Assembly (NCBI GenBank): GCA_964344415.1
Contig: CAYFMS010000001.1
Location: 100,214 to 164,213 of the forward strand
Length of the DNA: 64,000 nucleotides
Origin: an uncultured Gammaproteobacteria bacterium
GTDB taxonomy: Bacteria > Patescibacteriota > Patescibacteriia > UBA9934
Reading direction: 5' to 3'
The position numbers and the translations under genes are program-made. The notes under the pieces are model-generated. The model was not told where the DNA came from and made no database searches. It saw only the letters and a list, made by a program, of their open reading frames with translations. This document shows, piece after piece, positions 3,890 to 54,204 of the stretch (the stretch's first letter is position 1; each line of letters starts with the position of its first letter).

Positions 3890-5956
3890 TTATTGGCCCA
3901 GAAGTCTTTTCGCACGCTCGATCGTTACCTCCGCGTGCTCTTCAACTTCTCCCTTATCTGCATGCTCTGCAGATTGACCGCTTTCCCCCTCAACGTATTG
4001 TTCTACGCTCGGCGAAAGGTTTGACCAGACCACAAGCATGGCCAGCAATGCTGCCACATAGCCAGCAACCTGCACATCCGTTCGCTTGAGCAGCTTTCCG
4101 GAATAGTGCAGCGCAATCGACGCCGCGATCAGCACAGGGATGTACCACCAATGAAGCCATGTTCCATCGAAGAAACGTTGCACCACTGGGAAGCCCATAA
4201 CAACATGGATGCCGAAGATGAAACCCCAGAAGATAGCATTCGCACCTGCGACCCCCAGGATATTCACTTGGACCTGTTCCATATTTTTGCGCTCAGCCTT
4301 GTCCTTGTACAGTGCTGTCCAGAACCAGCCGGTAAGTTCGGCAGGAATAAGGATTGCACTGACAAGTACGAAGAAGAGAGCCGTATTGCTGCTCCATGCA
4401 TTCAGCTGGAAGTACATCGTCGACACAATCCACAGCCCCACCCACACAACAGTGTTAATGATGCCGCGAATCTTGGAACCAGGTCGCCACCGATAAAGGG
4501 GCGACACAGGTCTATCGATCGGGAACTCGAATCCGCCCAGCTTGCTGAGCTTGCCGATCAGAGATCCCTGTGTCTCGTCCCTCTTTGCCTCGGGTGCTGG
4601 TCCGCCGAGTACATTGAACAGAGGAATGACGATGATTACGAATGGCAACATGGCAAGGTTTCCCATCAACCATAGCAGCAATCCGTATTCCCAACTTTCC
4701 GCGCTCCACTCGAGCAGTGTGCCGAGTGTGTACGGGGCGGCATAGGCAAGCGTCGATGTAATCAATGACGCTCCAAGCAGTCCCGTGACGATCTGCGACG
4801 CAGCTCGTACACCCGGACGCGTTGCACGCCAACGAATCAACATCCCAACACCGAAACCAATGAAGGAAACGATCGGGATGATGGTGCTCGCAGCAACGTA
4901 GAGGTTTGGATATGGCGTTGGGAGCACCGATGTCAGTGCTCCCGTCACCACGTTGACCAGCCCCTCCGCGGCCATACCACCAAGAATACCAACCGCAAAC
5001 GCGACGATACTCAAGGCAATCGCAGCTGCATCTTCGCCGCTGGCGTCGAACCAATCATGCCATCCTTCTCGATCTTCCGGATCGGACAGCGGATCGAGTC
5101 CATCGAAGACCCATGCATATATGCGAGAAGAAATGCCGTATTTCTTCGAACGCTGCCCTGTCGCTTCACATGCATCGACGAAATCGATGAGCCTTCTGTT
5201 GTACAGGCTCATTAAGCGCTGCTTAGAGTCGTCCATGACTCTCCGCTCTTGTGCAGACAGAATGTCCTCACCTTGGCGCTGACCTTCCTCTGCCGATCCC
5301 CGTCTTCTCTCTGCATGTCGATCGCGTAATCGTCGATTCACGCCCTCGATATTGTTGAGGTCACGATGCGCACGATTGACTTCGTCTGCTGTCAGCTCCG
5401 GAAGTCGAGCAATGACTTTCGAGTTCTCTTCCATGGCGGCGGCCACATGTTGCAATGCAGCACGGCATCCACGAATCGGCAGCAAGTCCTGGTCACGAGC
5501 CGACCGCAACATGCGGCGCAGCAAGGCGAGCTCTGTATCCCGATTTGGAAGATCAGGAAGCGGCGGGTCTGGCGGGCTCCTCTCAGCATCGTCAGCCGGA
5601 TCAGAGTCATGCGAGTCCCTCGCCCTTTTGAGGTCGCGTCGGAGCCTGGATGCCCATCGTTCGCGGTCACGCTCATTCGCTTTCACGCGCCAAGCGCGCG
5701 CCACATCTTCGCTGAGCACCTCGAATGCCGAGATGATCACCGGACGGGCCCAAACAGGCACGCGAGGATGACTCCCAATGGTCTCACCAATCAGCTTCAG
5801 GGCGAAGCGATTCATGAATGTGTCCATGACCAGTCCTAAGACTTGCGTGGTCATGTCCATCACCTGCCGCTCTGACAGATCTGCTTCACCAGACGGAAGT
5901 CCAGTGAAGACCTTGTCGGTCAACCAATTGATGACTGTTTCTTTCGTTGGGTTCAT
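3890..5956 (-). CDS. hypothetical polytopic membrane protein: ~300-aa charged/coiled N-terminal cytoplasmic domain plus ~10 C-terminal TM helices; no family recognised
   Basis: 688-aa ORF with SD GGAGG 6 nt upstream. GC ~58% with G/C-ending codons, unlike the host. The N-terminus is Arg/Asp/Glu-rich (RRDLKRARDSHDSDPADDAERSPPDPP). Confidence 0.7.
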   Translation of the reverse strand: MNPTKETVINWLTDKVFTGLPSGEADLSERQVMDMTTQVLGLVMDTFMNRFALKLIGETIGSHPRVPVWARPVIISAFEVLSEDVARAWRVKANERDRERWASRLRRDLKRARDSHDSDPADDAERSPPDPPLPDLPNRDTELALLRRMLRSARDQDLLPIRGCRAALQHVAAAMEENSKVIARLPELTADEVNRAHRDLNNIEGVNRRLRDRHAERRRGSAEEGQRQGEDILSAQERRVMDDSKQRLMSLYNRRLIDFVDACEATGQRSKKYGISSRIYAWVFDGLDPLSDPEDREGWHDWFDASGEDAAAIALSIVAFAVGILGGMAAEGLVNVVTGALTSVLPTPYPNLYVAASTIIPIVSFIGFGVGMLIRWRATRPGVRAASQIVTGLLGASLITSTLAYAAPYTLGTLLEWSAESWEYGLLLWLMGNLAMLPFVIIVIPLFNVLGGPAPEAKRDETQGSLIGKLSKLGGFEFPIDRPVSPLYRWRPGSKIRGIINTVVWVGLWIVSTMYFQLNAWSSNTALFFVLVSAILIPAELTGWFWTALYKDKAERKNMEQVQVNILGVAGANAIFWGFIFGIHVVMGFPVVQRFFDGTWLHWWYIPVLIAASIALHYSGKLLKRTDVQVAGYVAALLAMLVVWSNLSPSVEQYVEGESGQSAEHADKGEVEEHAEVTIERAKRLLGQ

Positions 5957-6078
5957 GAGAACCTCCTATGAAGTTTGAAGTTTTGAAATTGTGTAGGTTC
6001 GATACCGGATTTTAACGATTTTACGCCAAATCCAGGCCACTTTTTATACCATAAAATGGGCTTTTTGTCAATCCAACC

Positions 6079-6116
6079 AATATCGGATATAAACAGGCCT
6101 ATTTTTATCCGATATT
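6079..6116. promoter_or_regulatory. 11-bp perfect inverted repeat (aatatcggata ... tatccgatatt), operator-like, in the divergent island promoter region
   Basis: Arms at 6079-6089 and 6106-6116 are exact reverse complements, separated by 16 nt. Confidence 0.4.
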
Positions 6117-6182
6117 AATCATTGATTTTATATCGAATATTTGATTTCTGGCTGGTTTTAGCCAAAAAATCAACAAAAAATA

Positions 6183-6211
6183 TTGACAAAAAGCTTAAAA
6201 AATGCTATAAA
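6183..6211 (+). promoter_or_regulatory. sigma70-type promoter (TTGACA-17-TATAAA) for the 6292-7559 operon
   Basis: TTGACA at 6183-6188, a 17-nt spacer, then TATAAA at 6206-6211 preceded by TGC. GGAGGT SD sits 7 nt before ATG 6292. Confidence 0.55.
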
Positions 6212-6291
6212 TGTTAGCCTAAGTATGCCTCTGCATGCAAAGGATTTGTTCTTTATCACCTGATTAAACCCTTACAGATTGGAGGTGCCAT

Positions 6292-6870
6292 ATGGCACGC
6301 ATGATGTTTTTCTTGATGGTCATCCTGACGAGTGCCTGCGCCAAGCAGGCAACCGTCCAGCCGATGATCGTGGAGGTCGTCAATCCCTGCCCAACGGGGT
6401 ATGAGCTGATGACCAGTTCGCGTGAGACGCGAAGCACCAACTATCGTTTCGGTAGTTGGTCAAGTGTCGGCGGCAATGGCCGCGAAACCGTCACGCGTCG
6501 CTGCGTGAAAGTTGCTCCTGTGGTGCAAACAGCACCTCAGCCTCCCGTCTTCGTCACCGCCGTGCCGTCCCATGTGGCGGCATATGAGGTGAACGTAGAA
6601 GAGTTGCAGCAGACGCAGTGGGCAATCATGGAAGAAGAGGTCGCCGTACAAAAACGTGCGCTTGAGATTTCCAAGAGCCGACGTGATGAGATTGCGCTGG
6701 CACTCGCGACGGCGAAGGATGACCTGGCTGCGGCAAGACGCCTTGGAGCGGACATACTTCGTAAAGCACGACGCGTCGCGTACCTCGAGGCGCTTCTGTC
6801 AGAGATGGCGGATGTCACGAATTCCTTGATCGATCAGATCGAGGCTGATCAGAATGGAGGTGTGAATTGA
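6292..6870 (+). CDS. hypothetical secreted protein or lipoprotein with a C-terminal coiled-coil
   Basis: Signal peptide MARMMFFLMVILTSAC followed by Cys. C-terminal heptad-like region EELQQTQWAIMEEEVAVQKRALEISKSRRDEIALALATAKDDLAAARR. GC-rich. Confidence 0.6.
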   Translation: MARMMFFLMVILTSACAKQATVQPMIVEVVNPCPTGYELMTSSRETRSTNYRFGSWSSVGGNGRETVTRRCVKVAPVVQTAPQPPVFVTAVPSHVAAYEVNVEELQQTQWAIMEEEVAVQKRALEISKSRRDEIALALATAKDDLAAARRLGADILRKARRVAYLEALLSEMADVTNSLIDQIEADQNGGVN

Positions 6871-7559
6871 TCACACTTTTCATCCTGATCGCGGCAGCTC
6901 TCGCGCAAACCGCTGGCTGGGGGCCTGGACATGATCCGCTCAGTCCACTCTCCGGATCGCATCTGACAGATGCGACACAGGAGTGGCCGGTCAATTCCTG
7001 CGTCATCGCAGGGATGCCGGAGGGACGCGGAAAACTCGTGTCCATCACCAACAGTTCAGGATCGACAGCGATTCTGACGGCGGTGAAACGGTACGAGACT
7101 CGCGAAGAGGTGGCTGACAATGTCTACCCACTCGCGGTCATGCGTCCCGGGCAGGCCATGGTCAGCGCCGCAATTCAGTGGGAAGAAGATGGCAGTCGCC
7201 GTCGATATCCACTGAAAAGTGGTGAAACCTGTTACATGCGCCTTCCTGCAGGGCGGTGGGTCATCGAGATGTGGGAAATCCCAAATCTCGACAGCACCCC
7301 ACCACCTGAGCGCATCATTGCCCGAGGCCATGCGTACATTCCGAATGGCCAAGGGGGATTGAAGCGCGTAGCGCAGCACCTTTCCTTCGACCGTACCCGT
7401 TACGGTAAGGAAGTGCGCTGGCATCAGGAAACGATTCACATCTCATCCCCTGTGGACGAGGTATGGATCGAGGCGCAGGTCATCCGGCAAATGACCAATC
7501 CTCGAGAGAGGATTCGCACGCCAGGGTTCACAATCGACCCACATGACTGGCGCAGCTAG
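6867..7559 (+). CDS. hypothetical secreted protein
   Basis: ATGA overlap with the upstream gene indicates translational coupling. Signal peptide MITLFILIAAALAQTAGWG. GC-rich. A terminator follows. Confidence 0.6.
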   Translation: MITLFILIAAALAQTAGWGPGHDPLSPLSGSHLTDATQEWPVNSCVIAGMPEGRGKLVSITNSSGSTAILTAVKRYETREEVADNVYPLAVMRPGQAMVSAAIQWEEDGSRRRYPLKSGETCYMRLPAGRWVIEMWEIPNLDSTPPPERIIARGHAYIPNGQGGLKRVAQHLSFDRTRYGKEVRWHQETIHISSPVDEVWIEAQVIRQMTNPRERIRTPGFTIDPHDWRS

Positions 7560-7577
7560 TCAGGTGGTTCGATATAA

Positions 7578-7612
7578 CCGATGCTACTCATACGGAGCGG
7601 CATCGGTTTTTT
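7578..7612 (+). terminator. Rho-independent terminator
   Basis: ccgatgc ... gcatcgg 7-bp stem followed by T6. Confidence 0.65.
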
Positions 7613-7614
7613 GC

Positions 7615-7646
7615 AACCAAAAAACAGGCATATGGCCTGTTTTTTA
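7615..7646. terminator. bidirectional terminator hairpin
   Basis: caggc-atatg-gcctg stem flanked by A6 and T6 runs. It also serves the minus-strand pilin array. Confidence 0.55.
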
Positions 7647-7652
7647 TTTTAC

Positions 7653-8024
7653 CTATGATTGCAATCCTGCTTCTGACAATGCGTCGAAGACGAAGTTTGA
7701 AATCGCAAGCGCCGCAAGAATCAAGATAATACCGACAATACCATTGATGAGAAGCTTCTTTGCCTTTTCAACCTTTCCTTCATCTCCCCCAGCCGTCATC
7801 CACATAAATCCAGCATAAAGTGTCAAAATGAGGAAGATAATTCCAAGTACGGAAATAAGCACGGAAATAAGATTCCCAATCAGTGTTGTTAAATCCTGTT
7901 CAGGAAGTCCACTTGCTGCTGAAACGTCACCAAGACGATCCGTTGCAGATGTTTGAGCATGCACTTGAACCGCCACAGCGAGGCTTAGCGGCACAGAAGA
8001 AAGAAGAGCGAGAGCTTTTTTCAT
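7653..8024 (-). CDS. TrbC/VirB2-family pilin-like protein (paralog 1)
   Basis: Signal peptide, then TM1...MWMTAGGDEGKVEKAKKLLINGIVGIILILAALAISNF (TM2). Topology and the AGxMxxxxGG motif resemble RP4 TrbC/VirB2. Confidence 0.6.
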   Translation of the reverse strand: MKKALALLSSVPLSLAVAVQVHAQTSATDRLGDVSAASGLPEQDLTTLIGNLISVLISVLGIIFLILTLYAGFMWMTAGGDEGKVEKAKKLLINGIVGIILILAALAISNFVFDALSEAGLQS

Positions 8025-8038
8025 AAAAAGAGATTAAT

Positions 8039-8440
8039 TTATTGTGTTGCCGTTTCCTCTACAGGTGCAGAAGATGTGGCGCTTTCAATGCTTTGTGTCA
8101 CGAAATTCGCAATCACAAGCGAAGCTGATACAAGTATAATTCCGATGATCGAATTGCGCAACATTGCCTTCGCTTTTTTGACACGGTCTTCATTCCCGCC
8201 CGCTGAAAAATAGAACATTCCACCTACGATGAGATAGCCAAGAAGGACAAGGCCGAGAATGGATAGTAGGACTTGAAGAAGCCTGCCAAGCACTTCTGCA
8301 AAAACAGGTACTTGGTTTTCACTGCCATATACAGCGCTCCCTGCCCGATCCGTTACCGAAGTATAGCTGGGCTGAGCATAGGCAGCACCGGCCGGCAAGA
8401 AAAGAAATGAGATCCCGATGATTGCTAGCAATTTCTTCAT
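8039..8440 (-). CDS. TrbC/VirB2-family pilin-like protein (paralog 2)
   Basis: Same architecture: ...FYFSAGGNEDRVKKAKAMLRNSIIGIILVSASLVIANF. Confidence 0.6.
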   Translation of the reverse strand: MKKLLAIIGISFLFLPAGAAYAQPSYTSVTDRAGSAVYGSENQVPVFAEVLGRLLQVLLSILGLVLLGYLIVGGMFYFSAGGNEDRVKKAKAMLRNSIIGIILVSASLVIANFVTQSIESATSSAPVEETATQ

Positions 8441-8441
8441 A

Positions 8442-8837
8442 TTATGGTGTTGGTGGAGCGGTGGAACTCACCCCAGAAAGCGCTTCTAATAGTAAATTGG
8501 TTATCGCAAAGGCGGCAACAATGATAATCATTCCGACCGTTGCATGTATGAGCAGCTTCTTCGCCTTTGCAACAGAGTCGAGATTCCCCTGATCCGTCAT
8601 CCACATCACACCTGCATAGACCATTTGAACAAGATACACAATTCCGACAAGCCCAAGAAGTGGTCGAATAATGTACACCCCAAGAAAAGTACCTACATCG
8701 ATATTGCGCTGCCCACTCCCATAGGAAAGTTCTGCTGTTTCAAAAAGCCCTATTTCATTTACATCAAGTTGAGCAAAGACAATAACAGGAATAAAAAACA
8801 AACTAAGCATTATGATGGGTAAAATCCATTTCCGCAT
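8442..8837 (-). CDS. TrbC/VirB2-family pilin-like protein (paralog 3)
   Basis: Start taken at internal ATG 8837 (MRKWILPII signal peptide). Motif VMWMTDQGNLDSVAKAKKLLIHATVGMIIIVAAFAITNL. Confidence 0.55.
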   Translation of the reverse strand: MRKWILPIIMLSLFFIPVIVFAQLDVNEIGLFETAELSYGSGQRNIDVGTFLGVYIIRPLLGLVGIVYLVQMVYAGVMWMTDQGNLDSVAKAKKLLIHATVGMIIIVAAFAITNLLLEALSGVSSTAPPTP

Positions 8838-8875
8838 ATCGAAAGGGCCCTTGGCCCAATCGGCATACGACAATG

Positions 8876-9313
8876 TTATTGCGTTGCTGTGAGAATGGAC
8901 CGAATCACGAATTCTGTAATTGCCCAAGCGGTAAGAATAATGGCAAGGCCAACAAGTCCAGCAATGAGCATGCGCTTTGCCTCGGCAACCTTGTCGTCAT
9001 TTCCGCCAGCGGTCATCCACTTGAATCCACCCATGAGTGTTACCACGACAGCGATAATTCCAAGGAATCCAATCACGACACGAATGAGATTTCCTGCCGT
9101 CGATTCAAGATCAGCAGAACCAAGTCCTGTAGCACTTGTAAAGTCATCACTCAAAAGATCATCAGCTGTGAGCGGACCTGAGTCGCTTCCAGTTGTTGTT
9201 GGGACGGGATCACCAAGCTGCGCCGACGCAGGTGATACAAAGAAACTAAATGCACTGAGTGCAATGAGAAGGCTCATTGCGCCATAGAGAGAGTAACGTA
9301 GGAAACTCGTCAT
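8876..9313 (-). CDS. TrbC/VirB2-family pilin-like protein (paralog 4)
   Basis: FKWMTAGGNDDKVAEAKRMLIAGLVGLAIILTAWAITEF. Confidence 0.6.
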   Translation of the reverse strand: MTSFLRYSLYGAMSLLIALSAFSFFVSPASAQLGDPVPTTTGSDSGPLTADDLLSDDFTSATGLGSADLESTAGNLIRVVIGFLGIIAVVVTLMGGFKWMTAGGNDDKVAEAKRMLIAGLVGLAIILTAWAITEFVIRSILTATQ

Positions 9314-9331
9314 AGAAAAAGAATTAAGAAA

Positions 9332-10012
9332 CTAATTAGCGGGACCTGCTTCTCCGCCGACAAGAGGATTACCTGTTGTGACGGCAGTGAAGAGCGTATT
9401 GGTAGCAACGAATGCTGCTGCGATAATGATTATACCAAGCATTGCAAAAATGAGTACTTTCTTTGCTTTTGAAATCTGTGCATCATTTCCGCCAGCTGTT
9501 AGAAACATGAGTCCACCGAAAATGAACATGATAAGAGCAATGGCGCCCGTGAGGCCAAGAATACCCTGAATGATGCGCCCAAGGATTTCGCGGGGGTCGG
9601 ATGTTCCAAGAGGATTCACAAGTCCAACGGGAGCTGCAGAAATCGACCCTACTGTTCCTGATCCAGACGTGGGCGCGGACTGGACAACCGGAGCCGACGT
9701 CGTTGCTCCACATGAACTTGGATCATTTATACATGCTGCTTCGCAATCATCCGCCTCAACATCGACACATCCCTGCACGAGATTGGAACAAGCAAAGTAA
9801 TCTGTCTGAGGATCTAAGCCATCACAAATCTGCCCTGCGCCATAGACACTTGCATCTCCCGCATCCCCACAAACAGCTTCAGCTTGATTTTCACAATAGC
9901 CCGTGAAGTCTTGAGCGGAAACGATTAATGGAATGAGCATGGAAATAGCCATGAATAAAAGTGATAAAAATGACCATTTTATTGTAAAAAATCTTTGCAT
10001 CATATTATTCAT
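9332..10012 (-). CDS. TrbC/VirB2-family pilin-like protein (paralog 5) with a Cys-rich N-terminal insertion
   Basis: LMFLTAGGNDAQISKAKKVLIFAMLGIIIIAAAFVATN. The insertion carries about 11 Cys (CENQAEAVCGDAG...CEAACINDPSSCG). Confidence 0.55.
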   Translation of the reverse strand: MNNMMQRFFTIKWSFLSLLFMAISMLIPLIVSAQDFTGYCENQAEAVCGDAGDASVYGAGQICDGLDPQTDYFACSNLVQGCVDVEADDCEAACINDPSSCGATTSAPVVQSAPTSGSGTVGSISAAPVGLVNPLGTSDPREILGRIIQGILGLTGAIALIMFIFGGLMFLTAGGNDAQISKAKKVLIFAMLGIIIIAAAFVATNTLFTAVTTGNPLVGGEAGPAN

Positions 10013-10574
10013 TTTGTGTATTTATTAAACTTCCCGCCGTGTCACCTCCAGTTGCGCGATCAATCGTTTCCTCGATGGTAGAATCTCCGCTTGGCAAGCT
10101 TCCTGTCGGTGATGTCAAAACACTAATGACAATATTCACAATGGCATAGGCGGACAATACAATCACAAGTCCAATGAATGCATCGCGCAGCGTATGAAGT
10201 CCTTTTTGAATTTTCGTTTGATTCCCTCCACTTGTGATCCAAGTTAGTCCACCAATGATAAAAACAAGCAAGAGAATACCTCCTGTTATTCCAAAGAGGA
10301 ATGTTTGAATGTTCACAGCAATTTGAAAGAGATCCTGAATGCTACATTTTCCCTTTTCATCACATTCCGTTGAGAGATTATAACGAATGAGTCCGCTTCT
10401 AATGAGCTGTGTAAAACGTGGTACCGTTACTGACTGTTCAATTTGATTCCCTGCGAGACCCGTTGTTGGTGGTGCTGTGACATCGGTTTGCGCATGGGCA
10501 TTTAAAGCGAAAAACAACAGCGAGCATAGTATGCTGACTAAAAAAATACGATATGTATAACGTATAAAACTCAT
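10005..10574 (-). CDS. TrbC/VirB2-family pilin-like protein (paralog 6, divergent)
   Basis: LTWITSGGNQTKIQKGLHTLRDAFIGLVIVLSAYAIVNI; signal peptide MSFIRYTYRIFLVSILCSLLFFALNAHA. Confidence 0.5.
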   Translation of the reverse strand: MSFIRYTYRIFLVSILCSLLFFALNAHAQTDVTAPPTTGLAGNQIEQSVTVPRFTQLIRSGLIRYNLSTECDEKGKCSIQDLFQIAVNIQTFLFGITGGILLLVFIIGGLTWITSGGNQTKIQKGLHTLRDAFIGLVIVLSAYAIVNIVISVLTSPTGSLPSGDSTIEETIDRATGGDTAGSLINTQNE

Positions 10575-10579
10575 CTGGA

Positions 10580-10860
10580 AATCATTATAGCGTAGATGGG
10601 TTGTCGGGAGTAGGGCATTGTTACGGATTTACGGATGGTGCGGATTATCGGTTGCACAGTTGACGACAAGTCTATTCGTGACTCATAAATAGACTTGTCG
10701 TCATCCCGAGCGAATGCGAGGGATCTCTCACAGTATCTGTTTATGTTTCATAAACCAAGATACCGTGTCATCCCGGACAGAGCGAAGCGGAGATCCGGGA
10801 TCCATCAGCAACCGTCATGCCGGATCTAGTCCGGCATCCCCTGTTTTTTTCTTCTTACTT
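10580..10860. repeat. copy of the dispersed modular repeat family (modules gatttacggatggt, cagttgacgacaagtct plus nested hairpin, and the gtcatccc...38-mer) with a terminal hairpin and T-run
   Basis: The 14-mer at 10626-10639 is identical to 16024-16037. The 38-mer at 10781-10818 is identical to 61738-61775. A 14-bp perfect IR, gacgacaagtctat/atagacttgtcgtc, lies at 10663-10703. Hairpin gccggatctagtccggc at 10819-10835. Confidence 0.65.
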
Positions 10861-10879
10861 TTCTTTAAAGAAAAGTAAG
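10854..10879. repeat. 26-bp perfect palindrome cttacttttctttaaagaaaagtaag
   Basis: The 13+13 arms are exact reverse complements. Confidence 0.8.
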
Positions 10880-10936
10880 CAAAAGAACGCCGCCAGTGCT
10901 CGCTTTGTCACATGCATAGAGCGTCATCGCTCGGGC

Positions 10937-11008
10937 AAAACAGAGAGTAGGAATGTCCTTATTTTTCTTGATACAATCATGCGTTCATTCCTATCGGCTG
11001 TTTTGCAA
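10937..11008. repeat. interrupted ~20-bp inverted repeat (gcaaaacag-agag-taggaatg ... cattccta-tcgg-ctgttttgc)
   Basis: Both arm segments are exact reverse complements, separated by a ~30-nt loop. Confidence 0.6.
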
Positions 11009-11167
11009 TTCCTCGCTCTTGCCGTATGCAGTGTGACAGTCTCACAGGTGGCGGCAGATTCGGAATAAAGGATATTAGGTAAATATTGGTCGCGCAGTGA
11101 GCATGGAAAGGTTGAACCTTGTGACCTCCCAGCTACACCCCAAACCCTACTCCCTACACCCTAATAG

Positions 11168-12547
11168 CTAATATGTCTGACTGATTTTTCTTTCCGCCAA
11201 ATCCAGCGCATCCTCCGGATCCTCTACGTCAAGATAGGCATCAATGAGTTCAAGAATGGCCGCTTCGGCGCGATCCCAGTCCTCGCCCATATACCAACCA
11301 TCTGCCAACAGCACTTGCTCGGCAAATACACCAAGAACTTCATCGTCGAGCTGGGACCCGATAAGTTTTGGATGCGCCGTTGGCTTTTCAGCCTTTGCAA
11401 GGAAGCTCGCCACCTGCTCTTCGCTTGTAGCAAATAAGAGAAAATCCCATGCCCAATCACTGTAGCGACTATTCGACGCGACGACTTCAATCCAATAATT
11501 TGCGAAATGCACTTGTTTCGAACCGGCAATTTGCGGCAAATGCGTCACTTCGTAATTCAATCGAGGTGCCGATGTCCGAATAAGTGGATTGTGATATGCA
11601 TAGCCAAAGAAGAATGCTGTTTGACCGTTTGCGAAAGCTTCAAAAGAATTCGGGCTATCTTCCGTCCATGTATAAACCTCTTTCACTGGGTTAGCAAAAT
11701 CCGTATAGAATGAAAGTGCATCAAGTGCCGGAATATTCCGACCCGCCTCGGTATTAATGGTATTCGTAAGGTCAACACGACCACGATCATCCACCATCTG
11801 AACACCCGCCTGCATCATAATGACAGACAAAAGGTCCGCCGCTCGCTCTACATTGTATGCCGTACCAAGGGCAGCTCCTGACTGATCTACCTCGCCCGTC
11901 GAGTCAAAGCTCGTTAATTCGACAACTTGATTCTGAAAATCTGTCCATGTTTCCGGCGGCGTTGGGATGCCGGCCGCTCCAAGCAAATCTTTATTGTAAT
12001 AAAGCGCAAGCGTATCGAGAGAAAGCGGAAGTCCGGCAACAACATCTACCGTCCCCTCCTGTGTTTGCACTGGAATGACAACATCATCGATGACCTGATC
12101 AACATATCGATCACCGAGCTGACGCATATTAAGTGTCGGTTTGGTTTGATTCACAAATACAACCTCTCTGCGAAGGGTGCCACGTACTTGCTGCTCAGAA
12201 ACGGTGACCTGTGATGGCATTGGGTCAATGAGATTTGCAAATTCACCTATCTTTGTATTCTGAATTGTGAAGATGTCCGGGCCTCGATCCTCCGCAAGGG
12301 CGCGAATCAATTCTTCTTCATATTCTTCAAAAAGCAACTTTCTGTATTCGATCTGAACATTCGGGTGACGCGCTTCATAGGCCGCAATAATATCGCGAAA
12401 GTCATCTTCACCCTCGAAAACTCGCCAATAACGTAAGACAATTTGCTCATCTGCCGGACTTGCATTTCCACCACCAAAACACCCAGCCCCTATCAAAACA
12501 AGCGACAGAGCTATGATGGACAATTTAAAAAAGGATTTTATTTGCAT
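11168..12547 (-). CDS. extracellular solute-binding lipoprotein (ABC transporter SBP, family-1-like); orphan, with no adjacent permease
   Basis: Signal peptide with LIGAGC lipobox; 459 aa; overall SBP_bac_1-like composition. Confidence 0.5.
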   Translation of the reverse strand: MQIKSFFKLSIIALSLVLIGAGCFGGGNASPADEQIVLRYWRVFEGEDDFRDIIAAYEARHPNVQIEYRKLLFEEYEEELIRALAEDRGPDIFTIQNTKIGEFANLIDPMPSQVTVSEQQVRGTLRREVVFVNQTKPTLNMRQLGDRYVDQVIDDVVIPVQTQEGTVDVVAGLPLSLDTLALYYNKDLLGAAGIPTPPETWTDFQNQVVELTSFDSTGEVDQSGAALGTAYNVERAADLLSVIMMQAGVQMVDDRGRVDLTNTINTEAGRNIPALDALSFYTDFANPVKEVYTWTEDSPNSFEAFANGQTAFFFGYAYHNPLIRTSAPRLNYEVTHLPQIAGSKQVHFANYWIEVVASNSRYSDWAWDFLLFATSEEQVASFLAKAEKPTAHPKLIGSQLDDEVLGVFAEQVLLADGWYMGEDWDRAEAAILELIDAYLDVEDPEDALDLAERKISQTY

Positions 12548-13413
12548 ACTCCGTCTCGAATATATTTGCGCAGTCCATTCCTTACCTCTGGATGCTTAAG
12601 GCCAAGTTCAATTTGCGCAATAATGAATTGCAATTTATTTCCGCAGTCATAGCGTGTGCCATCTAGTGTGCGACCATATGCCACCTTCCCCGATTTTAGA
12701 TGCGTAATAAAAGCGTCAGCCAATCGTATTTCCCCGCCCTTCCCTGGTTTTTGCGTCTTTAAAATATTCAAAATATCTGGCGTGATGACATATCGACCAA
12801 TAACCGCCTGATTGGAAGGGGCCTGCTTTATGCTTGGTTTTTCAACAAATTGATCTATTTGCCAAACCTTTTGATTCACACGTACGCCGCCAATAACGCC
12901 GTAGCGTGTTACATCCTTTCTCGGAACCTCTTCAACGGCAATAACAGGATCGCCAAATTTTTCATATACATCGATGAGCTGTTTGATTCCTGATTTACGT
13001 GGGTTATAAATAATGTCGTCACCAAAAAGAACAGCAACCGGCTCATCTGGATCGATAAATGGCATGGCAGATAAGAGCGCATGTCCATCACCAAGTGGCT
13101 TTGGCTGGCGAACAAAAGCAAATTTCGCGAGCTTTCCAATTTTCTTTACACCCTCGAGCGCTTCTTTTTTCTTTTTCTGCTCAAGCCGATATTCGAGCTC
13201 AAAATTTCTATCAAAATGATCTTCAATGGCACGTTTACCAAGTGCGGTAATAAAAATAATTTCTTCAATACCAGCCGCAACAGCCTCTTCAACGACATAT
13301 TGAATCACTGGCTTGTCGACAACGGCTAGCATTTCTTTGGGCTGTGCTTTTGTTGCAGGGAGGAATCGCGTTCCCATGCCTCCAACGGGGATAATCGCTT
13401 TTCGAACTTTCAT
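12538..13413 (-). CDS. galU: UTP--glucose-1-phosphate uridylyltransferase
   Basis: KAIIPVGGMGTRFLPATKAQPKEMLAVVDKPVIQYVVEEA is the canonical GalU N-terminus. Confidence 0.85.
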   Translation of the reverse strand: MKVRKAIIPVGGMGTRFLPATKAQPKEMLAVVDKPVIQYVVEEAVAAGIEEIIFITALGKRAIEDHFDRNFELEYRLEQKKKKEALEGVKKIGKLAKFAFVRQPKPLGDGHALLSAMPFIDPDEPVAVLFGDDIIYNPRKSGIKQLIDVYEKFGDPVIAVEEVPRKDVTRYGVIGGVRVNQKVWQIDQFVEKPSIKQAPSNQAVIGRYVITPDILNILKTQKPGKGGEIRLADAFITHLKSGKVAYGRTLDGTRYDCGNKLQFIIAQIELGLKHPEVRNGLRKYIRDGVCK

Positions 13414-15989: not shown

Positions 15990-16236
15990 AGCAGAGATTG
16001 TGTAGAAGTTACAGATTTACGGATGGTACGGATATACGGATTTAGGTGTGAAGGAGATAAAGGAGACTTATGAGATTGAGGAGATTCGGATCGCGAAGGA
16101 TATTGGATGAACTCGGTCGCGCAGTGAGTTAGATGAGATTTGTTTGAAGTTCGAGGACCGGAGTAAGCCGTACTGAAAGGTACGGTGTTGAGGACCAGAG
16201 AACTGAGGACAAAGATCGTTAACTCACAAGCGACTT
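15990..16236. repeat. copy of the dispersed modular intergenic repeat family
   Basis: Contains gatttacggatggt (16024-16037), gcgaaggatattggatgaa (16091-16109), ggtcgcgcagtgag (16113-16126, identical to 11088-11101) and gaggaccag motifs. C-poor on the plus strand. Confidence 0.6.
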
Positions 16237-25344: not shown

Positions 25345-26484
25345 TTATTGTCGTATCGGCATCACAATATACTTAAACACTTCGTCTGGCATGCCAAGAG
25401 GCGTAACAACACATGGATTCATGCCATCAATCATCTGTATTTTGATCTTTGAGCTGCTCATGGCATTAAGCCCATCGAGCAAATAACGATAATTCAAGGC
25501 TATTTCATTCTCCCCTCCCTCCATTTCCACATCGAGCGATACGACATTTTCCCCGCGAACTGAATCATTTGACCGTATCTCAATTTCATTTTCCCCTTTA
25601 GAACTCAGTCGAATATCATAAAGACCTAATTTAGAGAAAAGACTTGCTGTTTTTATGGCCTGTATGAGCTCGCTTCGATTTACATCGAAAGATGTCACAC
25701 TCTTTTCTGGAATAATTTGCCGGTAGTCAGGATATACACCCTCAATCGTCCTTGAAGTTAATTCAAAACTTCCATAGGTAAAGACAACTTGATTCTCCGA
25801 GAGACCTATCTCAATCGCCTCAGGCGCTTCTACATCGTCTTTAAAGAGCCCAAGTATGCGATGCAGTTCTGAAAGCGTTCTTTGCGGAATAATGACCTGT
25901 GCAGAATCCGTTGAACCACCGCTTATTGTCAAGACAACCTCTGAAAGCCGATAACTGTCTGTCGCTGCCATAATAACCTTGCCGCCACCTTCTCTTTCAT
26001 CATGAAAAGAAAAGAATACACCAGCGAGTTCTGGACGAGATTCATTTGTCGATGCAGCAAATAATACATTCGCAAGCCCTTTTTTGAATTCAGATACTGA
26101 CATGGAATATGTCTGCTGCCCCGAAACAGATGGAACAACCGGAAATTCCGTCGATGCAATTCCCTTGAGCTTTGTTTTGCTGTTTTTGCATGAAACCATC
26201 AATCCGTCGTCTACCAAATCAATATCAACTCGCTCACTTGGTAAGAGATTAGCAAAGTCATAGAAGAGTTTTGATGGAACGGTGTATTCCCCCTCTTGTT
26301 CAACTCTGCCTCTCATAGAACAAGAGACAGCCATTTCTAAATTGGTTGCAATAAGCTTTACATTTCCTCCCTCTGCTTTTATGAGTACATTCTCAAGAAC
26401 AGGTAAGTGGGCTTGTTTTGCTCCTAGGCGACTTGTAATGGCAAGTGCCTGCCAGAGATTGTCTTTTGTGCAAGATAGTTTCAC
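25345..26484 (-). CDS. dnaN: DNA polymerase III beta sliding clamp
   Basis: MKLSCTKDNLWQALAITSRL...; 379 aa; position immediately downstream of dnaA. Confidence 0.9.
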   Translation of the reverse strand: MKLSCTKDNLWQALAITSRLGAKQAHLPVLENVLIKAEGGNVKLIATNLEMAVSCSMRGRVEQEGEYTVPSKLFYDFANLLPSERVDIDLVDDGLMVSCKNSKTKLKGIASTEFPVVPSVSGQQTYSMSVSEFKKGLANVLFAASTNESRPELAGVFFSFHDEREGGGKVIMAATDSYRLSEVVLTISGGSTDSAQVIIPQRTLSELHRILGLFKDDVEAPEAIEIGLSENQVVFTYGSFELTSRTIEGVYPDYRQIIPEKSVTSFDVNRSELIQAIKTASLFSKLGLYDIRLSSKGENEIEIRSNDSVRGENVVSLDVEMEGGENEIALNYRYLLDGLNAMSSSKIKIQMIDGMNPCVVTPLGMPDEVFKYIVMPIRQ

Positions 26485-26554
26485 AGTATTTCGGTTATCT
26501 CTTATTAATAAAGAGAATATATAGGTTTATAAATCAGTAGTAACAGTAGGGCAT

Positions 26555-26762
26555 GTGGACAGCGTGGATAAGTGACGTTTATGCCCGTGATTCTTTACTG
26601 AAAGTGCTTGGGGATTTGTGCACAGTACATGGGAGTTCTTGTGAATGAATTGTGTACAGATTCGAGGCACTTTCACACTATGTGTTTATCCTCAGGTTTT
26701 TCACCAAGATGTTCATAGGTTTATCCACGCAGCTTATCCACTTATCCTCATATTATCCAGAA
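26555..26762. promoter_or_regulatory. DnaA-box cluster (oriC element) between dnaA and dnaN
   Basis: TTATCCACG (26721), TTATCCACT (26734), TTATCCTCA, TTATCCAGA, CGTGGATAA (26564) and TGTGGACAG (26555): at least six 7-8/9 matches to TTATCCACA. Confidence 0.75.
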
Positions 26763-28150
26763 TAGATTTTCTGCTTGATGAGTTCTAGGTCACGCTTTAG
26801 CTGTTCATCAGTGTCGAGCAGCTTCACGATTTTACTGTATGCGTGCATAGCGGTTGTATGGTCACGTCCGCCGAGTTCCTGTCCAATGGACGGATAAGAA
26901 CTATCCATTTCCTCTCTCAGAAGGTACATAACGATTTGGCGAGGGAATGCCAAGCGTTTTTCCCTACTTTTTCCAAGAATATCTTCTTGATTAATGTCGA
27001 AATATTCAGCGACGGTAAGAATAATTTGTTTCGGTGACACTGTTTTTTTCATGCTGCTTGCCTCGAAGCTCGCAATGAGCGGTTGGCAGGTGTCGATGGT
27101 GGGCTCGATATTCTTAAACTGGTGATAGGCAACAATTTTTGTAAGCGCTCCCTCGAGTTCTCGCACATTTGAAGAGATATTATCGGCAATATAGTGCAGA
27201 ATTTCCCGAGGAATGCTGACGCCGCGTTTTTGACATTTGATGTCGAGAATCGCAACGCGCGTTTCAAGGTCTGGAGCACCAATATCAACGAGCATGCCCC
27301 ATTCGAGCCTAGAAAGAAGGCGCTTCTCAAGGGCAGCAATGGCGCGAGGCTGCCTATCAGACGCAATAATGATCTGTTTATTTGCCTGATGAAGGGCATT
27401 AAAGGTATGGAAGAACTCTTCTTGTGTCCCTTCTTTACCAGTGATGAACTGAATGTCATCAATAAGGAGCAGGTCTACATTACGGTATCGATCTTTGAAT
27501 TCTTTTGCTTTTCCGCCGCGCACAGCCTGAATAAAATCATTTGTGAACTGCTCGCATGTCACATAAAGCACGCGGGCATTTGGCTTTGAACGAACGATTT
27601 CATTCCCAACTGCATGCAGAAGATGTGTTTTCCCAAGCCCAACGCCTCCGTAAATGAAAAGAGGGTTATATGTGCCACCGGGTTGCGCTGCAACAGCTTG
27701 CGCGGCTGCATGCGCGAGCTCATTCTGCTTCCCAACAATGAAGCTTTGGAAGATATAATTTGTATTAATAGCACTGCTACTTGTTGCAGGCCCCTGGTCA
27801 TTCGTAACGAATCCGTAATCTTCTGGAGTATTTTCAACAGGAGCCGCCTCTACTTTTTCTTCCTCTTTAGGGGAGAAGTCAACCGCAACAGGGTCGGCTG
27901 GTTTCGTTGCGACACGATATTCAAGTCCGCGAATAGTGTGTTCAGTAATATTTTGCAGGCTAAGAAGTATGTCGCGATGATACTTTTTTTCAAGCCATGC
28001 TTTTGTGAATTGATTTGGAACACCAACAATAATGGTGTCCGGAGAAAACTCCGCAATGAATGTATTGCGGAACCAAGTAGTGAAATGCGCTTTGCTGAGC
28101 TTCAATTCAAGCTCACCAAGCGCTGCTTGCCAGAGTTCATGTGTATTCAT
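26753..28150 (-). CDS. dnaA: chromosomal replication initiator protein
   Basis: AAA+ Walker A GGVGLGKTHLLHA and C-terminal DNA-binding motifs; start at ATG 28150 (MNTHELWQAALGELE). Confidence 0.95.
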   Translation of the reverse strand: MNTHELWQAALGELELKLSKAHFTTWFRNTFIAEFSPDTIIVGVPNQFTKAWLEKKYHRDILLSLQNITEHTIRGLEYRVATKPADPVAVDFSPKEEEKVEAAPVENTPEDYGFVTNDQGPATSSSAINTNYIFQSFIVGKQNELAHAAAQAVAAQPGGTYNPLFIYGGVGLGKTHLLHAVGNEIVRSKPNARVLYVTCEQFTNDFIQAVRGGKAKEFKDRYRNVDLLLIDDIQFITGKEGTQEEFFHTFNALHQANKQIIIASDRQPRAIAALEKRLLSRLEWGMLVDIGAPDLETRVAILDIKCQKRGVSIPREILHYIADNISSNVRELEGALTKIVAYHQFKNIEPTIDTCQPLIASFEASSMKKTVSPKQIILTVAEYFDINQEDILGKSREKRLAFPRQIVMYLLREEMDSSYPSIGQELGGRDHTTAMHAYSKIVKLLDTDEQLKRDLELIKQKIYSG

Positions 28151-28191
28151 AGATATTCCCCTCAAATTCGACTGATCATCATGTTACACTA

Positions 28192-40160: not shown

Positions 40161-41075
40161 ATGGCGCAAAATCAGTTAGGGAAACTTATAAAACAATTTC
40201 TGGAATACCTCGAAATCGAACGTGGCCGCAGTATGCGTACGGTCAGAAATTATCACTTTTATTTAAATAGATTCGCTGAATTTGCCGGACATCCGCACCC
40301 GTCAAAGATTTCGCAGGACATCGTTCGGAAATTTCGTTTATTTTTGAATAGGGATTTAGAAGGTCGTGACGATGTAAATTTAAAAAAGTCTACGCAGAAT
40401 TATCATTTGATCGCACTTCGTTCATTTTTAAAATATTTGCAAAAAATTGATATCAAAACACTTGCGCCCGAAAAAATAGAGCTTGCAAAGCATGGGACGA
40501 GGCAGGTTGAGGTTCTTGATGAGGATGAACTCGATCGTTTACGGGAAGCTCCACTTGAATCGGGTGGGATCATCGGTAAAAGAGATAAGGCAATAATTGA
40601 AATGCTCTTTTCGACAGGTTTGCGTGTTTCTGAGCTTGCGAATTTAAAAATCGATGACGTCAACCTAAAAAAAGATGAATTTACCGTTCGGGGTAAAGGG
40701 TCGAAGCATAGAGTTGTTTTTCTTTCTGATCAGGCGAAAAAATCGGTCAAAGAGTACCTTGAAGCGCGAAAGGATATGTCACCACATTTATTTGTGAGCC
40801 ATGATCGAGCAAAAAAGCATCGCGAACCCCTTCCCCTTTCAGCGCGCAGCGTTCAGCGTGTTATTGAAAGAGCTGCGTCTATTGCAGGAATTACAAAGAA
40901 AGTGACGCCGCATGTGCTGCGACATACATTCGCAACGGATTTACTGCATAATGGAGCTGATATTCGAAGCGTGCAGTCTATGCTTGGCCATGAATCGATT
41001 ACGACGACACAGGTGTATACGCATGTAACCGATAAACAGCTGCATGAAATTCATAAAAAGTTTCATGATAGGTAG
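40161..41075 (+). CDS. xerC: tyrosine recombinase XerC/XerD family
   Basis: C-terminal HVLRHTFATDLLHNGADIRSVQSMLGHESITTTQVYTHV with the RHRY catalytic residues. Confidence 0.8.
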   Translation: MAQNQLGKLIKQFLEYLEIERGRSMRTVRNYHFYLNRFAEFAGHPHPSKISQDIVRKFRLFLNRDLEGRDDVNLKKSTQNYHLIALRSFLKYLQKIDIKTLAPEKIELAKHGTRQVEVLDEDELDRLREAPLESGGIIGKRDKAIIEMLFSTGLRVSELANLKIDDVNLKKDEFTVRGKGSKHRVVFLSDQAKKSVKEYLEARKDMSPHLFVSHDRAKKHREPLPLSARSVQRVIERAASIAGITKKVTPHVLRHTFATDLLHNGADIRSVQSMLGHESITTTQVYTHVTDKQLHEIHKKFHDR

Positions 41076-41174
41076 GCTGATCATCAGATCATCTTCGATA
41101 TTTCCGACTTCTGAAGCGATCAACTCATAAGTCGGTTATATAAAATACCCCAGTCTTCAGACTGAGGCATTTTA

Positions 41175-41250
41175 TGGGGCGGCTAACGGGAATCGAACCC
41201 GTAATAGAGGTACCACAAACCCCTGTGATAACCGTTTCACCATAGCCGCC
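41175..41250 (-). tRNA. tRNA-His (GTG) with encoded G-1 and CCA
   Basis: Hand-folded: G-1 pairs with discriminator C; acceptor GCGGCTA/TAGCCGC; anticodon loop TTGTGGT; T-arm CGGGTTCGATTCCCG. Confidence 0.85.
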
Positions 41251-41251
41251 A

Positions 41252-41328
41252 TGGTACGCCCGGTAGGACTCGAACCCACAACCTAATGGTTAGAACCCAT
41301 CCGCTCTGTCCAGTTGAGCTACGGGCGC
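41252..41328 (-). tRNA. tRNA-Arg (TCT)
   Basis: Hand-folded: acceptor GCGCCCG/CGGGCGT (G1-U72 wobble), anticodon loop GTTCTAA, T-arm GTGGG-TTCGAGT-CCTAC, CCA encoded. Only 1 nt separates it from tRNA-His. Confidence 0.75.
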
Positions 41329-41477
41329 GTACTATTGGGTCTAATTGTAGCGCGATAGTAGCGCATTTTTTGTTTATTTGCAAGGTGTGATCCCAGCTAT
41401 GCATAAACACTTGACGTTTTTGGTATTTTCTGGCACTATACGCCGCGTTGTCTTGAAATATATGGATTCGTTCATGT

Positions 41478-42509
41478 ATGGAAAGGCATATCGTACCCTT
41501 TGAAGGCATTGTGCCGGAAAAGGTTTCACACTCGAGGCCTAGCGGCCTCATGGAGACATACAATATGTTTACTTCTTCGCTCATCCCCTCGTTCACGATG
41601 GATGTCAATTCGGGTAACTTCAAGGTGATCAGTGACGCTCTGCCGCAGATCGTTCCGCAGCCCGGCGCTTTGCGTCGGATCGCGTTCGACATCGACAAGG
41701 GCCGGCTCTCCCTCACCGAGCTCGAGGCTCCGAAGGCGGATGGGATGCTCGACGTGATCAACGTCGTCGAACTCGGCATCACCGACGATCAGAAGCGGGT
41801 CTTCATCGTGACGACGCAGACCGGCAACCTGATTCAGGGCGACAAGTTCGTCGACAATGCCGCCAAGCTGTCGCTGCAGAAGCTCGCGACCGGTTGCGCG
41901 GCGATGATGGATGGTGCCGACCTGAACATCGGCATCAACGTGAACACCGAAGCGATGAAGCTGATCGGTCGTCAGAGCGGAACGCGCCTCGACGCCATCG
42001 GCAACAACTGGTCGAGCTTCATGCTGACCGTCGACCTCGGCACCGGACAGATCGTCGACTTCGAGAACATGGGACACATGTCGGTGATGAAGGACTTCGT
42101 GACCGACGACTTCACCATCCTCGACGGGCTGCGCTTCCAGAAGGTGACGAACGACGAGATCCTCGCCGCCATCGACAATGGCCGCGACCTCATCGACCTG
42201 TTCGATGAGAACCGGTTCGTGAAGATCAACGACGATGTGCCGCACATGCTCATGCGCGGCATCGACGGCAAGGTCCTGACCACCGACGGTCTCGGAACCA
42301 CGGTGTTCAAGTGGGACGATGCGTCCGGCGACTTCCAGACCGGGAATGTCGACGGAATCCTGCACTCGGCGCTCGACGTCGACGGCATGATCGACAACAA
42401 CAGGTTCGTGAAGATCGAGGGCAGCCCCTACGACAACACGCTGCAGTCGATCCCGCTCGGCTTCGACGAACTGCCGGTCGACGCGAAGAACCAGTTCTCG
42501 CAGGCCTAG
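41478..42509 (+). CDS. hypothetical protein, GC-rich orphan (~58% GC) with internal repeats
   Basis: 343-aa ORF with repeated DENRFVKINDDV / DNNRFVKIEGS / DGILHSALDVDGMID motifs. No signal peptide. Many overlapping spurious ORFs on both strands are typical of high GC. Confidence 0.55.
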   Translation: MERHIVPFEGIVPEKVSHSRPSGLMETYNMFTSSLIPSFTMDVNSGNFKVISDALPQIVPQPGALRRIAFDIDKGRLSLTELEAPKADGMLDVINVVELGITDDQKRVFIVTTQTGNLIQGDKFVDNAAKLSLQKLATGCAAMMDGADLNIGINVNTEAMKLIGRQSGTRLDAIGNNWSSFMLTVDLGTGQIVDFENMGHMSVMKDFVTDDFTILDGLRFQKVTNDEILAAIDNGRDLIDLFDENRFVKINDDVPHMLMRGIDGKVLTTDGLGTTVFKWDDASGDFQTGNVDGILHSALDVDGMIDNNRFVKIEGSPYDNTLQSIPLGFDELPVDAKNQFSQA

Positions 42510-42595
42510 GTCTGCGTCCCGGAACAATGAACATCTCGTACACCTAGCGACTTCCATCGCTATGGATGAGTCAATGGTGTTCAAATGTTCCCTCT

Positions 42596-42634
42596 CTGCT
42601 CCCCCATTGCTTCGGCAGTGGCGGGAGCTTTTTT
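42596..42634 (+). terminator. Rho-independent terminator
   Basis: gctcccccattgc ... gcagtggcgggagc imperfect stem followed by T6. Confidence 0.5.
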
Positions 42635-42995
42635 GTATTGACATGTTTGCATTTTTACGGTATGAATGATCTATCTAGTTGTGAGAGAGGGTGTGCGCCT
42701 CCTTAAAATTCACAATGCGATCCCCTCTTCCATCTCCCACGAGATGCATAATCGTATTGTGGCGGTAGATATACCGTATGCAGTGGCTTTGGTGCTGGTG
42801 CATTGGCTACCTCGAATCTGTCAGACGAGGCGTGGTGGAACCAGCCTGACATGGTAAGGTAGCGATATCGTTGGTCACGTGATAACCAGGCGCGCCCGGG
42901 ACGCTTTCCTGCGCTCGAGCGTCTCGGGCGCGCTTCACTCATCGCCAATCGGCGATTCTTTTTTTATTTTGCTAAAAAACGTAAGATGAAGGCGT

Positions 42996-48458: not shown

Positions 48459-48604
48459 GTGTATTCTGTCCAAAATAGCTGATATTTGAACACAATTGTT
48501 ATTTTGTAGTAATTACAGCAAGTACAGGCCTGAATGTTCTGTGCCGGCACAGTGCAGGTTAAGAAAATTCAATGCAATGGCAAGATAGAAAAACACCGGT
48601 ATGA

Positions 48605-48635
48605 CCGGTTTTTTATTTTGCCTGTAGTAGGGGCG
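48605..48635. terminator. bidirectional terminator hairpin
   Basis: accggt-atg-accggt stem flanked by A5 and T6 runs. Confidence 0.45.
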
Positions 48636-48775: not shown

Positions 48776-48845
48776 CCTGTGAACAAGTTATGAATTGTAT
48801 AAAAATCTTCAAGAAACTTTGCTAAAAATAGCGTATAATAAAGAC

Positions 48846-54142: not shown

Positions 54143-54204
54143 TGAGATGGAAATTGTAACTTGTTCCGAGCTTCGCGCGTAAAGAGGGGGGTTTTGAACA
54201 ATTT

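Follow-up and report, generated by a model that had tools for sequence, protein, structure and literature searches.

What are the six small genes that lie consecutively on the minus strand at positions 7653-10574 of a 64,000 nt stretch of contig CAYFMS010000001.1 (assembly GCA_964344415.1, positions 100,214 to 164,213; hereafter the window), and which machinery do their products serve? A sequence-only reading, made without database searches, had proposed that they are paralogous pilins of the VirB2/TrbC type, the kind used by type IV secretion systems (T4SSs). Our analysis leads us to regard the locus as probably an operon for six Sec-exported pilin subunits of the VirB2 superfamily, of a type found in Patescibacteria, which presumably serves a T4SS encoded elsewhere and acts in host-cell contact.

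The gene content of the array was as first described. The listing of open reading frames (ORFs) contains six consecutive minus-strand ORFs of 123, 133, 161, 145, 226 and 189 aa in order of increasing coordinate, which we number by order of transcription (Table 1). The array is tightly packed, with intergenic gaps of 14, 1, 18 and -8 nt, and the six genes form one operon. An apparent 52 nt overlap between the position 4 ORF and the position 3 gene disappears with a later start codon: the position 4 gene almost certainly begins either at M31 (8837; 131 aa, MRKWILP..., predicted cleavage IVFA/QL) or at M40 (8810), the start called in the ENA record (122 aa). That record is a metagenome contig of 768,188 bp (ERZ930061, ERR2281801 k127_100043), which contains the exact position 6 sequence and on which the window corresponds to bases 594,179-658,178 in reverse orientation.

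All six proteins carry an N-terminal hydrophobic segment and two further long hydrophobic segments in a hydropathy scan, and their C-terminal cores align over the first transmembrane helix (TM1), a G-G-(N/D)...K-A-K-K loop and the second transmembrane helix (TM2). An AlphaFold model of the position 6 protein is a helical hairpin (H45-77/H82-120) with a predicted local distance difference test score of 85-93. The shared topology of signal peptide, TM1, loop and TM2 that had been read from the sequence was therefore upheld. A predicted signal peptidase site between Ala and Gln is present in all six proteins; these sites were assigned by eye with the AxA rule. The strict motif given earlier for the core is exact only in position 6, the most canonical paralog of the array, and the other paralogs have a looser form of it.

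The regions ahead of the hairpin differ more. In position 1, the signal peptide (predicted cleavage NAHA/QT) is followed by an exposed segment of ~55 aa containing a C-x5-C-S-I-x-D disulfide-loop motif, then by the hairpin core and a C-terminal tail of ~40 aa. In position 2, an insertion of ~100 aa lies between the signal peptide (IVSA/QD) and TM1. This insertion has 8 cysteines rather than the 11 first attributed to a single paralog; position 1 has 3, and the figure of 11 is reached by counting both proteins together.

The family to which these proteins belong was addressed with profile searches. In a Pfam scan, T4SS_pilin (PF18895) was the top match of all six proteins (E 1e-11 to 6e-4) and five scored above its 26.6-bit gathering threshold, in agreement with the annotation precomputed for the source contig. 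Position 4 stays below the threshold (E 5.9e-4), yet it scored 93 bits against a hidden Markov model (HMM) of close homologues and is clearly homologous to the T4SS_pilin family as judged by this comparison. Within the window, the same HMM matched these six ORFs alone. In NCBIfam, position 6 exceeded the cut-off of 40 bits for NF045849 (Mbov_0395 pilin-like conjugal transfer protein), and the other five scored 19.6-34.3 bits. The family is very large, with 67,867 clusters at 50% identity (E <= 1e-3). On these sequence comparisons, the six proteins belong to the VirB2-superfamily pilin-like proteins represented by PF18895.

The relationship to VirB2 itself was apparent in a comparison of profiles. 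One profile was made from 26 pilins of the candidate phyla radiation (CPR), including all six from the window, and the other from six annotated VirB2/TrbC proteins adjoining VirB1/VirB3 on MPF_T plasmids. Aligned with hhalign, the two gave a probability of 92.4% (E 5.3e-7) over 79 columns that cover the Ala-Gln signal peptidase site, TM1 with a W-M motif where it ends, and TM2. A single-sequence version of the comparison was weak (probability 2.4%). Some more distant homologues match both PF18895 and the TrbC/VirB2 family PF04956. Thus, of the pilin identity proposed earlier, the T4SS_pilin assignment held for five of the six proteins and the homology with VirB2/TrbC was supported by profile alignment, whereas none of the six reached the PF04956 cut-off. 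Type IV pilins of the PilA kind were considered and rejected: the window proteins have a classical Sec signal peptide, two transmembrane segments, no G-F-T-L-x-E motif and no Pfam match to type IV pilins.

Are the six genes interchangeable variants, or distinct subunits? To place the array among its relatives, the ORFs of 80 related loci from GTDB genomes were scanned with an HMM from close homologues. Of these loci, 44 carry an array of between 5 and 12 small pilins, with exactly six genes in 20 of them; 35 loci encode paired large proteins with a pilin hairpin at the N-terminus. Among the 20 six-gene arrays, the window pilins found their best match at their own position of the array in 17, 18, 16, 14, 7 and 15 cases for positions 1 to 6. 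All-against-all comparison gave same-position best-match fractions of 0.89, 0.77, 0.69, 0.57, 0.21 and 0.73, where chance would give 0.17, and median bit scores were 66-115 for same-position orthologues versus 56 for paralogs within one array. The position 3 pilin, for example, is 76% identical to its orthologue in L032, the closest relative. Only position 5 has weak positional orthology, tending to match position 6 best, and these two positions alone look recently related. First-position pilins have a further signature: C-x(4-7)-C-[ST]-[LIVF]-x-[DE] just before TM1 was found in 19 of 44 of them and in none of 244 others.

Since five of the six positions have their best matches at the corresponding position of other arrays, the array appears to be an old operon of six ancient, position-specific and differentiated subunit types, for example one major subunit with specialised or minor ones, rather than a set of interchangeable variants. 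This fits the earlier suggestion of functional variation, if by that differentiated subunits are meant, and speaks against the companion suggestion of recent antigenic diversification. In that alternative, on which PMC12102498 also speculates, recent tandem duplication and diversifying selection would generate surface variants for evasion of immunity or phages or for switching between host strains. The exposed N-terminal segments do differ strongly around a conserved transmembrane core, tandem VirB2 paralogs of Bartonella and Anaplasma offer a precedent (cited in PMC12102498), and some decorations are lineage-specific. The 8-Cys insertion is one of these, given that position 2 orthologues are mostly 111-145 aa long and the closest (L032, 66% identical) is only 120 aa; it had no significant homologue in the related loci. 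However, the paralogs predate the species that carry them, and identity within the array is just 24-41% to the first sequence over the full alignment (up to 52% locally). No DNA repeat of at least 18 nt is common to the pilin genes, no flanking inverted repeats occur above chance, and no invertase or recombinase gene adjoins the array, the sole integrase-family gene of the window being 30 kb away, which argues against a cassette system of antigenic variation. Moreover, each gene has its own start codon and signal peptide in a tight operon, and the products are probably made together rather than alternately. We consider such a variation system very unlikely.

A 17 nt inverted repeat around the spacer upstream of the array (10599-10615 / 11145-11161) could have marked an invertible promoter, an idea that was dropped because roughly 0.5 such pairs are expected by chance in 3.9 kb (a rough by-hand estimate) and because one of its arms falls within a short tandem repeat. 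For a possible origin of the 8-Cys insertion in a known repeat family, the sole match was a weak one, to a Cys-rich part of a giant pilin-fusion protein (E 3e-4, with a local database of small size). Extensions rich in cysteine are widespread in the family, with at least 10 cysteines in 24 of 288 array pilins.

The comparison also bears on the host. The closest loci, among GTDB species representatives, come from metagenome-assembled genomes (MAGs) named Ca. Uhrbacteria, Ca. Magasanikbacteria or 'Patescibacteria group', at 40-56% identity with one at 80%, and the window proteins have the housekeeping content of a small-genome type. Uhrbacteria and Magasanikbacteria lineages are listed as class ABY1 in Table S1 of PMC12102498. 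By these similarities the host is a member of the Patescibacteria (CPR) of the Uhrbacteria/Magasanikbacteria (ABY1) type. Many MAG records with Patescibacteria-type arrays and synteny (L005, L009, L010, L013 and others) carry the depositor title 'uncultured Gammaproteobacteria bacterium', and some homologues have clearly wrong source names, such as PTS IIC component or dihydrofolate reductase.

Several results weigh against pilins that serve a T4SS. No pilus is known to have been demonstrated experimentally in an ABY1 organism. None of the six proteins reached the PF04956 cut-off of 27.9 bits, the sole match being that of position 1 (E 1.6e-4). Fold searches returned only generic helical hairpins and cannot discriminate a pilin hairpin, and a profile search of PDB sequences gave no match. 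As the sequence-only reading had stated, no T4SS core gene is present: neither Pfam nor NCBIfam detected a VirB4, VirB6, VirB3 or VirD4 family in the window. Nor did Pfam annotation reveal a T4SS family in 81 kb of the source contig (record positions 586,622-667,692, 10 kb beyond each window end), and in none of the 80 related loci did a Walker-A screen detect a VirB4-like ATPase within ±10 kb of the pilin genes, so physical linkage to a T4SS is absent in the clade. To our knowledge, the tight coupling of the array to a solute-binding-protein gene, described below, is without counterpart in described T4SSs. Dependence on a T4SS is the weakest link in the interpretation that we prefer.

Other searches in this context were also negative. 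A tblastn search of a pilin against 72,556 plasmids gave no match, and a search for VirB4 seeded with PrgJ of pCF10 had only Firmicutes relatives among the matches listed. The 688 aa multi-TM product of 3890-5956 was considered as a divergent VirB6 and rejected: it had no Pfam or NCBIfam match, no homologue in a word-indexed search of 5.8 billion proteins, and no resemblance to the L094 genes in the corresponding place.

The fold-search result invites the question of whether the pilin label is a low-complexity artefact of hydrophobic helices, and whether these are ordinary two-TM proteins of another family (holin-like, Erv26-like or DUF-type). Weak matches to Erv26, DUF2207_C and MatE were indeed found (E 0.005-0.9), all far below their cut-offs. 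We judge such an artefact extremely improbable. PF18895 is the top match throughout and above its curated cut-off in five proteins, no unrelated two-TM family scored above it or reached its own threshold, and the match is carried by features that are not hydrophobic: the Ala-Gln site, W-M-T-A-G-G and K-A-K-K.

A stronger challenge comes from the genes directly upstream, which encode an ATP-binding cassette (ABC) substrate-binding protein (SBP) of the carbohydrate type and GalU. The SBP is probably a lipoprotein, it has distant matches to sugar-binding proteins in PDB, and no ABC permease or ATPase gene lies near it. Among the 44 related array loci, an SBP gene is directly upstream of the first pilin in 26, and galU occupies position -2 in 21. 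In 22 of the 26 loci, the pilin start codon lies between -59 and +45 nt from the stop codon of the SBP gene, and exactly at -4 in seven; the two codons often overlap. The same order recurs in the six-gene array of L094, on a contig of 874 kb, and in the more distantly related locus L092, with two pilins that match PF04956 as well.

These observations are consistent with a T4SS-independent envelope module, in which the hairpins would serve as membrane anchors, or build a structure at the surface or in the membrane, in cooperation with the co-transcribed lipoprotein of the sugar-binding type, for instance in capturing host glycans; homology with VirB2 would then reflect ancestry only. The lack of a VirB4-like ATPase within ±10 kb in the related loci and in the 81 kb of the source contig fits this explanation, as does the use of the PF18895 hairpin as the N-terminus of adhesin-like proteins of 600-3,460 aa in 35 loci, which is more anchor-like than filament-like. 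On the other side stand the supported homology with genuine VirB2 and the equivalent six-pilin array of the Saccharimonadia, which lies inside a T4SS cluster: transposon sequencing showed that the T4SS cluster of Ca. Southlakia epibionticum is essential, predicted pilin subunits included (PMC10633639, PMC12857230). Nor is distance from virB4 unusual. A search of 3,035 Patescibacteria assemblies with PF18895, PF04956 and CONJScan profiles found VirB4 in 2,417, about 80%, including most of the ABY1 entries consulted in Table S1, and VirB2-like genes together with VirB4 in 1,948; the two lie close to each other in only 1,135 of these and far apart in the other 813 (PMC12102498). Adjacency to the SBP gene could also be explained by co-expression alone in very small genomes. 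We regard the envelope module as unlikely, and give it as much weight as we do because of the consistent non-linkage to T4SS genes and the reuse of the hairpin in giant adhesin-like proteins.

We therefore favour pilins of a T4SS encoded elsewhere, and from the homology with VirB2, TrbC and TraA and the analogy with the Southlakia array we infer how they might work. The precursors would be exported through the Sec pathway and then cleaved between Ala and Gln by signal peptidase I. The mature pilins would sit in the membrane as helical hairpins with both termini outside and the lysine-rich loop (GGNxxKVxKAKK) in the cytoplasm. A VirB4-type T4SS would extract the hairpins, which could then polymerise into a short pilus or conduit where the host cell is contacted, with the variable N-terminal segments (the 8-Cys module and the disulfide loop) and the C-terminal tails exposed on the surface of the filament. 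The analysis itself establishes family membership, topology, operon structure, the conservation and positional orthology of the array, and homology with VirB2; T4SS dependence, filament formation and a role in host contact are the conditional parts of this proposal.

How does the locus compare with systems already described? Arrays of this kind are known from Patescibacteria: 441 arrays of 2-11 pilins were reported in 383 assemblies, with a mean within-array identity of 25% and a maximum of 54%, and are most abundant in Microgenomatia and Saccharimonadia (PMC12102498). The array of Southlakia consists of six VirB2-like pilins that diverge in sequence but are conserved in structure, for which a pilus-like conduit has been speculated (PMC12857230). 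Because such arrays have already been described and the family is very large, the window locus belongs to a known kind; it is a typical further example and not a new system. With the array in the T4SS cluster of Southlakia ML1 (SEML1_0006-0019) and the 'Sec secreted array' of Ca. Nanosynbacter lyticus TM7x (PMC10633639, PMC12102498, PMC12857230) it shares the phylum, PF18895, tandem arrangement, Sec signals and low identity. Like the Southlakia array it has six genes, and its origin-proximal location agrees with what PMC12102498 notes for T4SS genes. Unlike that array, it is not beside virB4 or another T4SS gene (compare ring 5 of Fig. S9 in PMC12102498) and is coupled to the SBP gene and galU instead. 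The SBP/galU context is not mentioned in the consulted portions of the three papers, and the host clade is ABY1, not one of the two classes in which the published arrays are most abundant. The fixed gene order with positional orthology, the first-position disulfide loop and the SBP/galU coupling in ABY1, none of which we found reported in those portions, are modest additions.

The more distant comparisons show likenesses and differences. With VirB2 (the Agrobacterium T-pilin) and TrbC, the window pilins have in common the Ala-Gln cleavage, a two-helix hairpin of similar length and W-M at the end of the first helix. They differ in falling below the PF04956 cut-off, in a lysine-rich inter-helix loop that is 7 residues longer in the hhalign alignment, in the monoderm-like host, and in having no VirB1, VirB3 or VirB4 gene adjacent. 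Mbov_0395/MMCAP2_0565 of Mycoplasma integrative and conjugative elements (NF045849) are likewise small VirB2-like hairpins of a wall-less or monoderm lineage; they are, going by the model name, single genes in a mobile element with a conjugative T4SS, whereas the window has six chromosomal genes and no mobile-element features. The VirB2 paralogs of Bartonella and Anaplasma are similar in being several diverged copies in tandem, but they are interpreted as antigenic or host-range variants inside a virB operon (as cited in PMC12102498), whereas the window copies are ancient position-specific orthologues unlinked to a T4SS.

It is tempting to go further and to see in the ABY1 array an ancient fixed-order operon for six subunits, uncoupled from T4SS genes and instead coupled in translation to galU and to an orphan lipoprotein that binds sugar, that makes a perhaps heteropolymeric and possibly T4SS-independent surface structure, presenting or feeding a glycan-binding protein at the host interface, with the hairpin reused as an anchor or incorporation module of giant adhesins and multi-hairpin polyproteins. 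We rate this extended idea as distinctly unlikely. VirB2-like arrays are among the few Patescibacteria envelope features for which a requirement in epibiotic growth has been shown (they are essential in Southlakia), and the constraints described here (six conserved subunit types, a first-position disulfide loop, and an operon that travels with a sugar-binding lipoprotein and not with a secretion ATPase) could guide structural modelling of heteromeric pili, and gene targeting if an ABY1 organism is cultivated.

Table 1. Coordinates in the window of the pilin genes, their upstream neighbours and flanking elements (a slash marks the predicted cleavage site)
Feature	Coordinates	Strand	Details
Pilin, position 1 (transcribed first)	10005..10574	-	189 aa; PF18895 38.9 bits; PF04956 22.3 bits, below cut-off
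Pilin, position 2	9332..10012	-	226 aa (ENA call: start 10000, 222 aa); PF18895 28.5 bits
Pilin, position 3	8876..9313	-	145 aa; predicted cleavage PASA/QL; PF18895 37.0 bits
Pilin, position 4	8442..8837	-	ORF to 8927, 161 aa; PF18895 20.3 bits versus 26.6 cut-off
Pilin, position 5	8039..8440	-	133 aa; predicted cleavage AAYA/QP; PF18895 39.2 bits
Pilin, position 6 (last)	7653..8024	-	123 aa; predicted cleavage QVHA/QT; PF18895 44.9 bits; NF045849 42.4 bits
SBP_bac_1 carbohydrate-type ABC substrate-binding protein	11168..12547	-	PF01547 97.4 bits
galU (UTP-glucose-1-phosphate uridylyltransferase)	12538..13413	-	TIGR01099 335.4 bits versus cut-off 326.8
Spacer between SBP gene and first pilin	10575..11167	.	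593 nt; contains dispersed repeat (about 10620-10822)
Palindromic hairpin with flanking A-run and T-run	7619..7645	.	Terminator-like; consensus match only

The sequences on either side of the array were also inspected. The sequence-only reading had placed the array between a GC-rich stretch and a copy of a dispersed repeat, and both flanks were confirmed (GC 0.50-0.55 in the 1 kb bins of 4001-8000, against ~0.44 elsewhere; repeat at 10620-10822). The junction between the SBP gene and the first pilin is tight in the relatives and measures 45 nt in L032, so the long spacer here is an insertion, and sequence comparison indicates that it is the dispersed repeat that splits the junction. Its segment 10736-10822 shares 85% identity over 87 nt with 61693-61779, and 10620-10645 has matches at 16008-16033 and 61600-61625. 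The repeat is intergenic and has internal palindromes, and its copies lie at 10620-10822, 61600-61779 and 16008-16077.

At the other end of the array, the hairpin at 7619-7645 looks like a bidirectional terminator that would close both the array and the convergent gene 6867-7559. It resembles a palindrome at 48589-48623 (80% identity over 35 nt); both have A/T-run flanks and stand at gene ends, and both are probably bidirectional intrinsic terminators. Counts of promoter and terminator sites in the region do not exceed the shuffled expectation. The GC-rich stretch (3890-7559) holds three ORFs, for a 688 aa protein with 6-7 TM segments, a probable lipoprotein of 192 aa and a secreted protein of 230 aa, none of which has a Pfam or NCBIfam match or a homologue in the related array loci. 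At the equivalent place, L094 carries genes of comparable size that are unrelated to them.

The hairpin also occurs in other protein architectures. The paired large proteins are encoded by adjacent genes (L006:8168-19399, L023:9929-20315, L030:7830-19291 and 32 further loci) for ~600-700 aa and 2,200-3,460 aa, with the PF18895 hairpin at the start followed by adhesin-like Big_5/TIG/DUF4215 domains, and their neighbours include HisRS, signal peptidase S26, YqeY and S21. A small-pilin array and a fusion pair can co-occur in one genome (JABHCP01: L023 and L072). Three single polypeptides (P0190, P0301 and P0214) contain 6, 11 and 17 pilin hairpins in a row; P0190 and P0301 lack internal signal peptides, and these proteins look like pilin 'polyproteins' rather than artefacts of array read-through.

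The window as a whole is a chromosomal, origin-proximal segment. Its genes include dnaA and dnaN (25345-28165), polA, polynucleotide phosphorylase, a class A penicillin-binding protein, NifU/cysteine desulfurase, trigger factor and four tRNAs; dnaA lies ~16 kb from the pilin array and the cumulative GC skew has its minimum near 38-40 kb. A second GC-rich patch at 41000-43000 (0.52-0.55) has long overlapping ORFs on both strands with no family match. It adjoins tRNA-His, tRNA-Arg and a Xer/phage-integrase-family gene (40161-41075), and may be an integrated element. Finally, a plus-strand cluster at 48795-60430 encodes two unannotatable proteins (328 and 289 aa), a 1,173 aa Ig-like/CarboxypepD_reg protein, a 1,285 aa protein with a Peptidase_G2 autocleavage domain and a 787 aa TPR protein, and by its domain content looks like another surface-protein locus.

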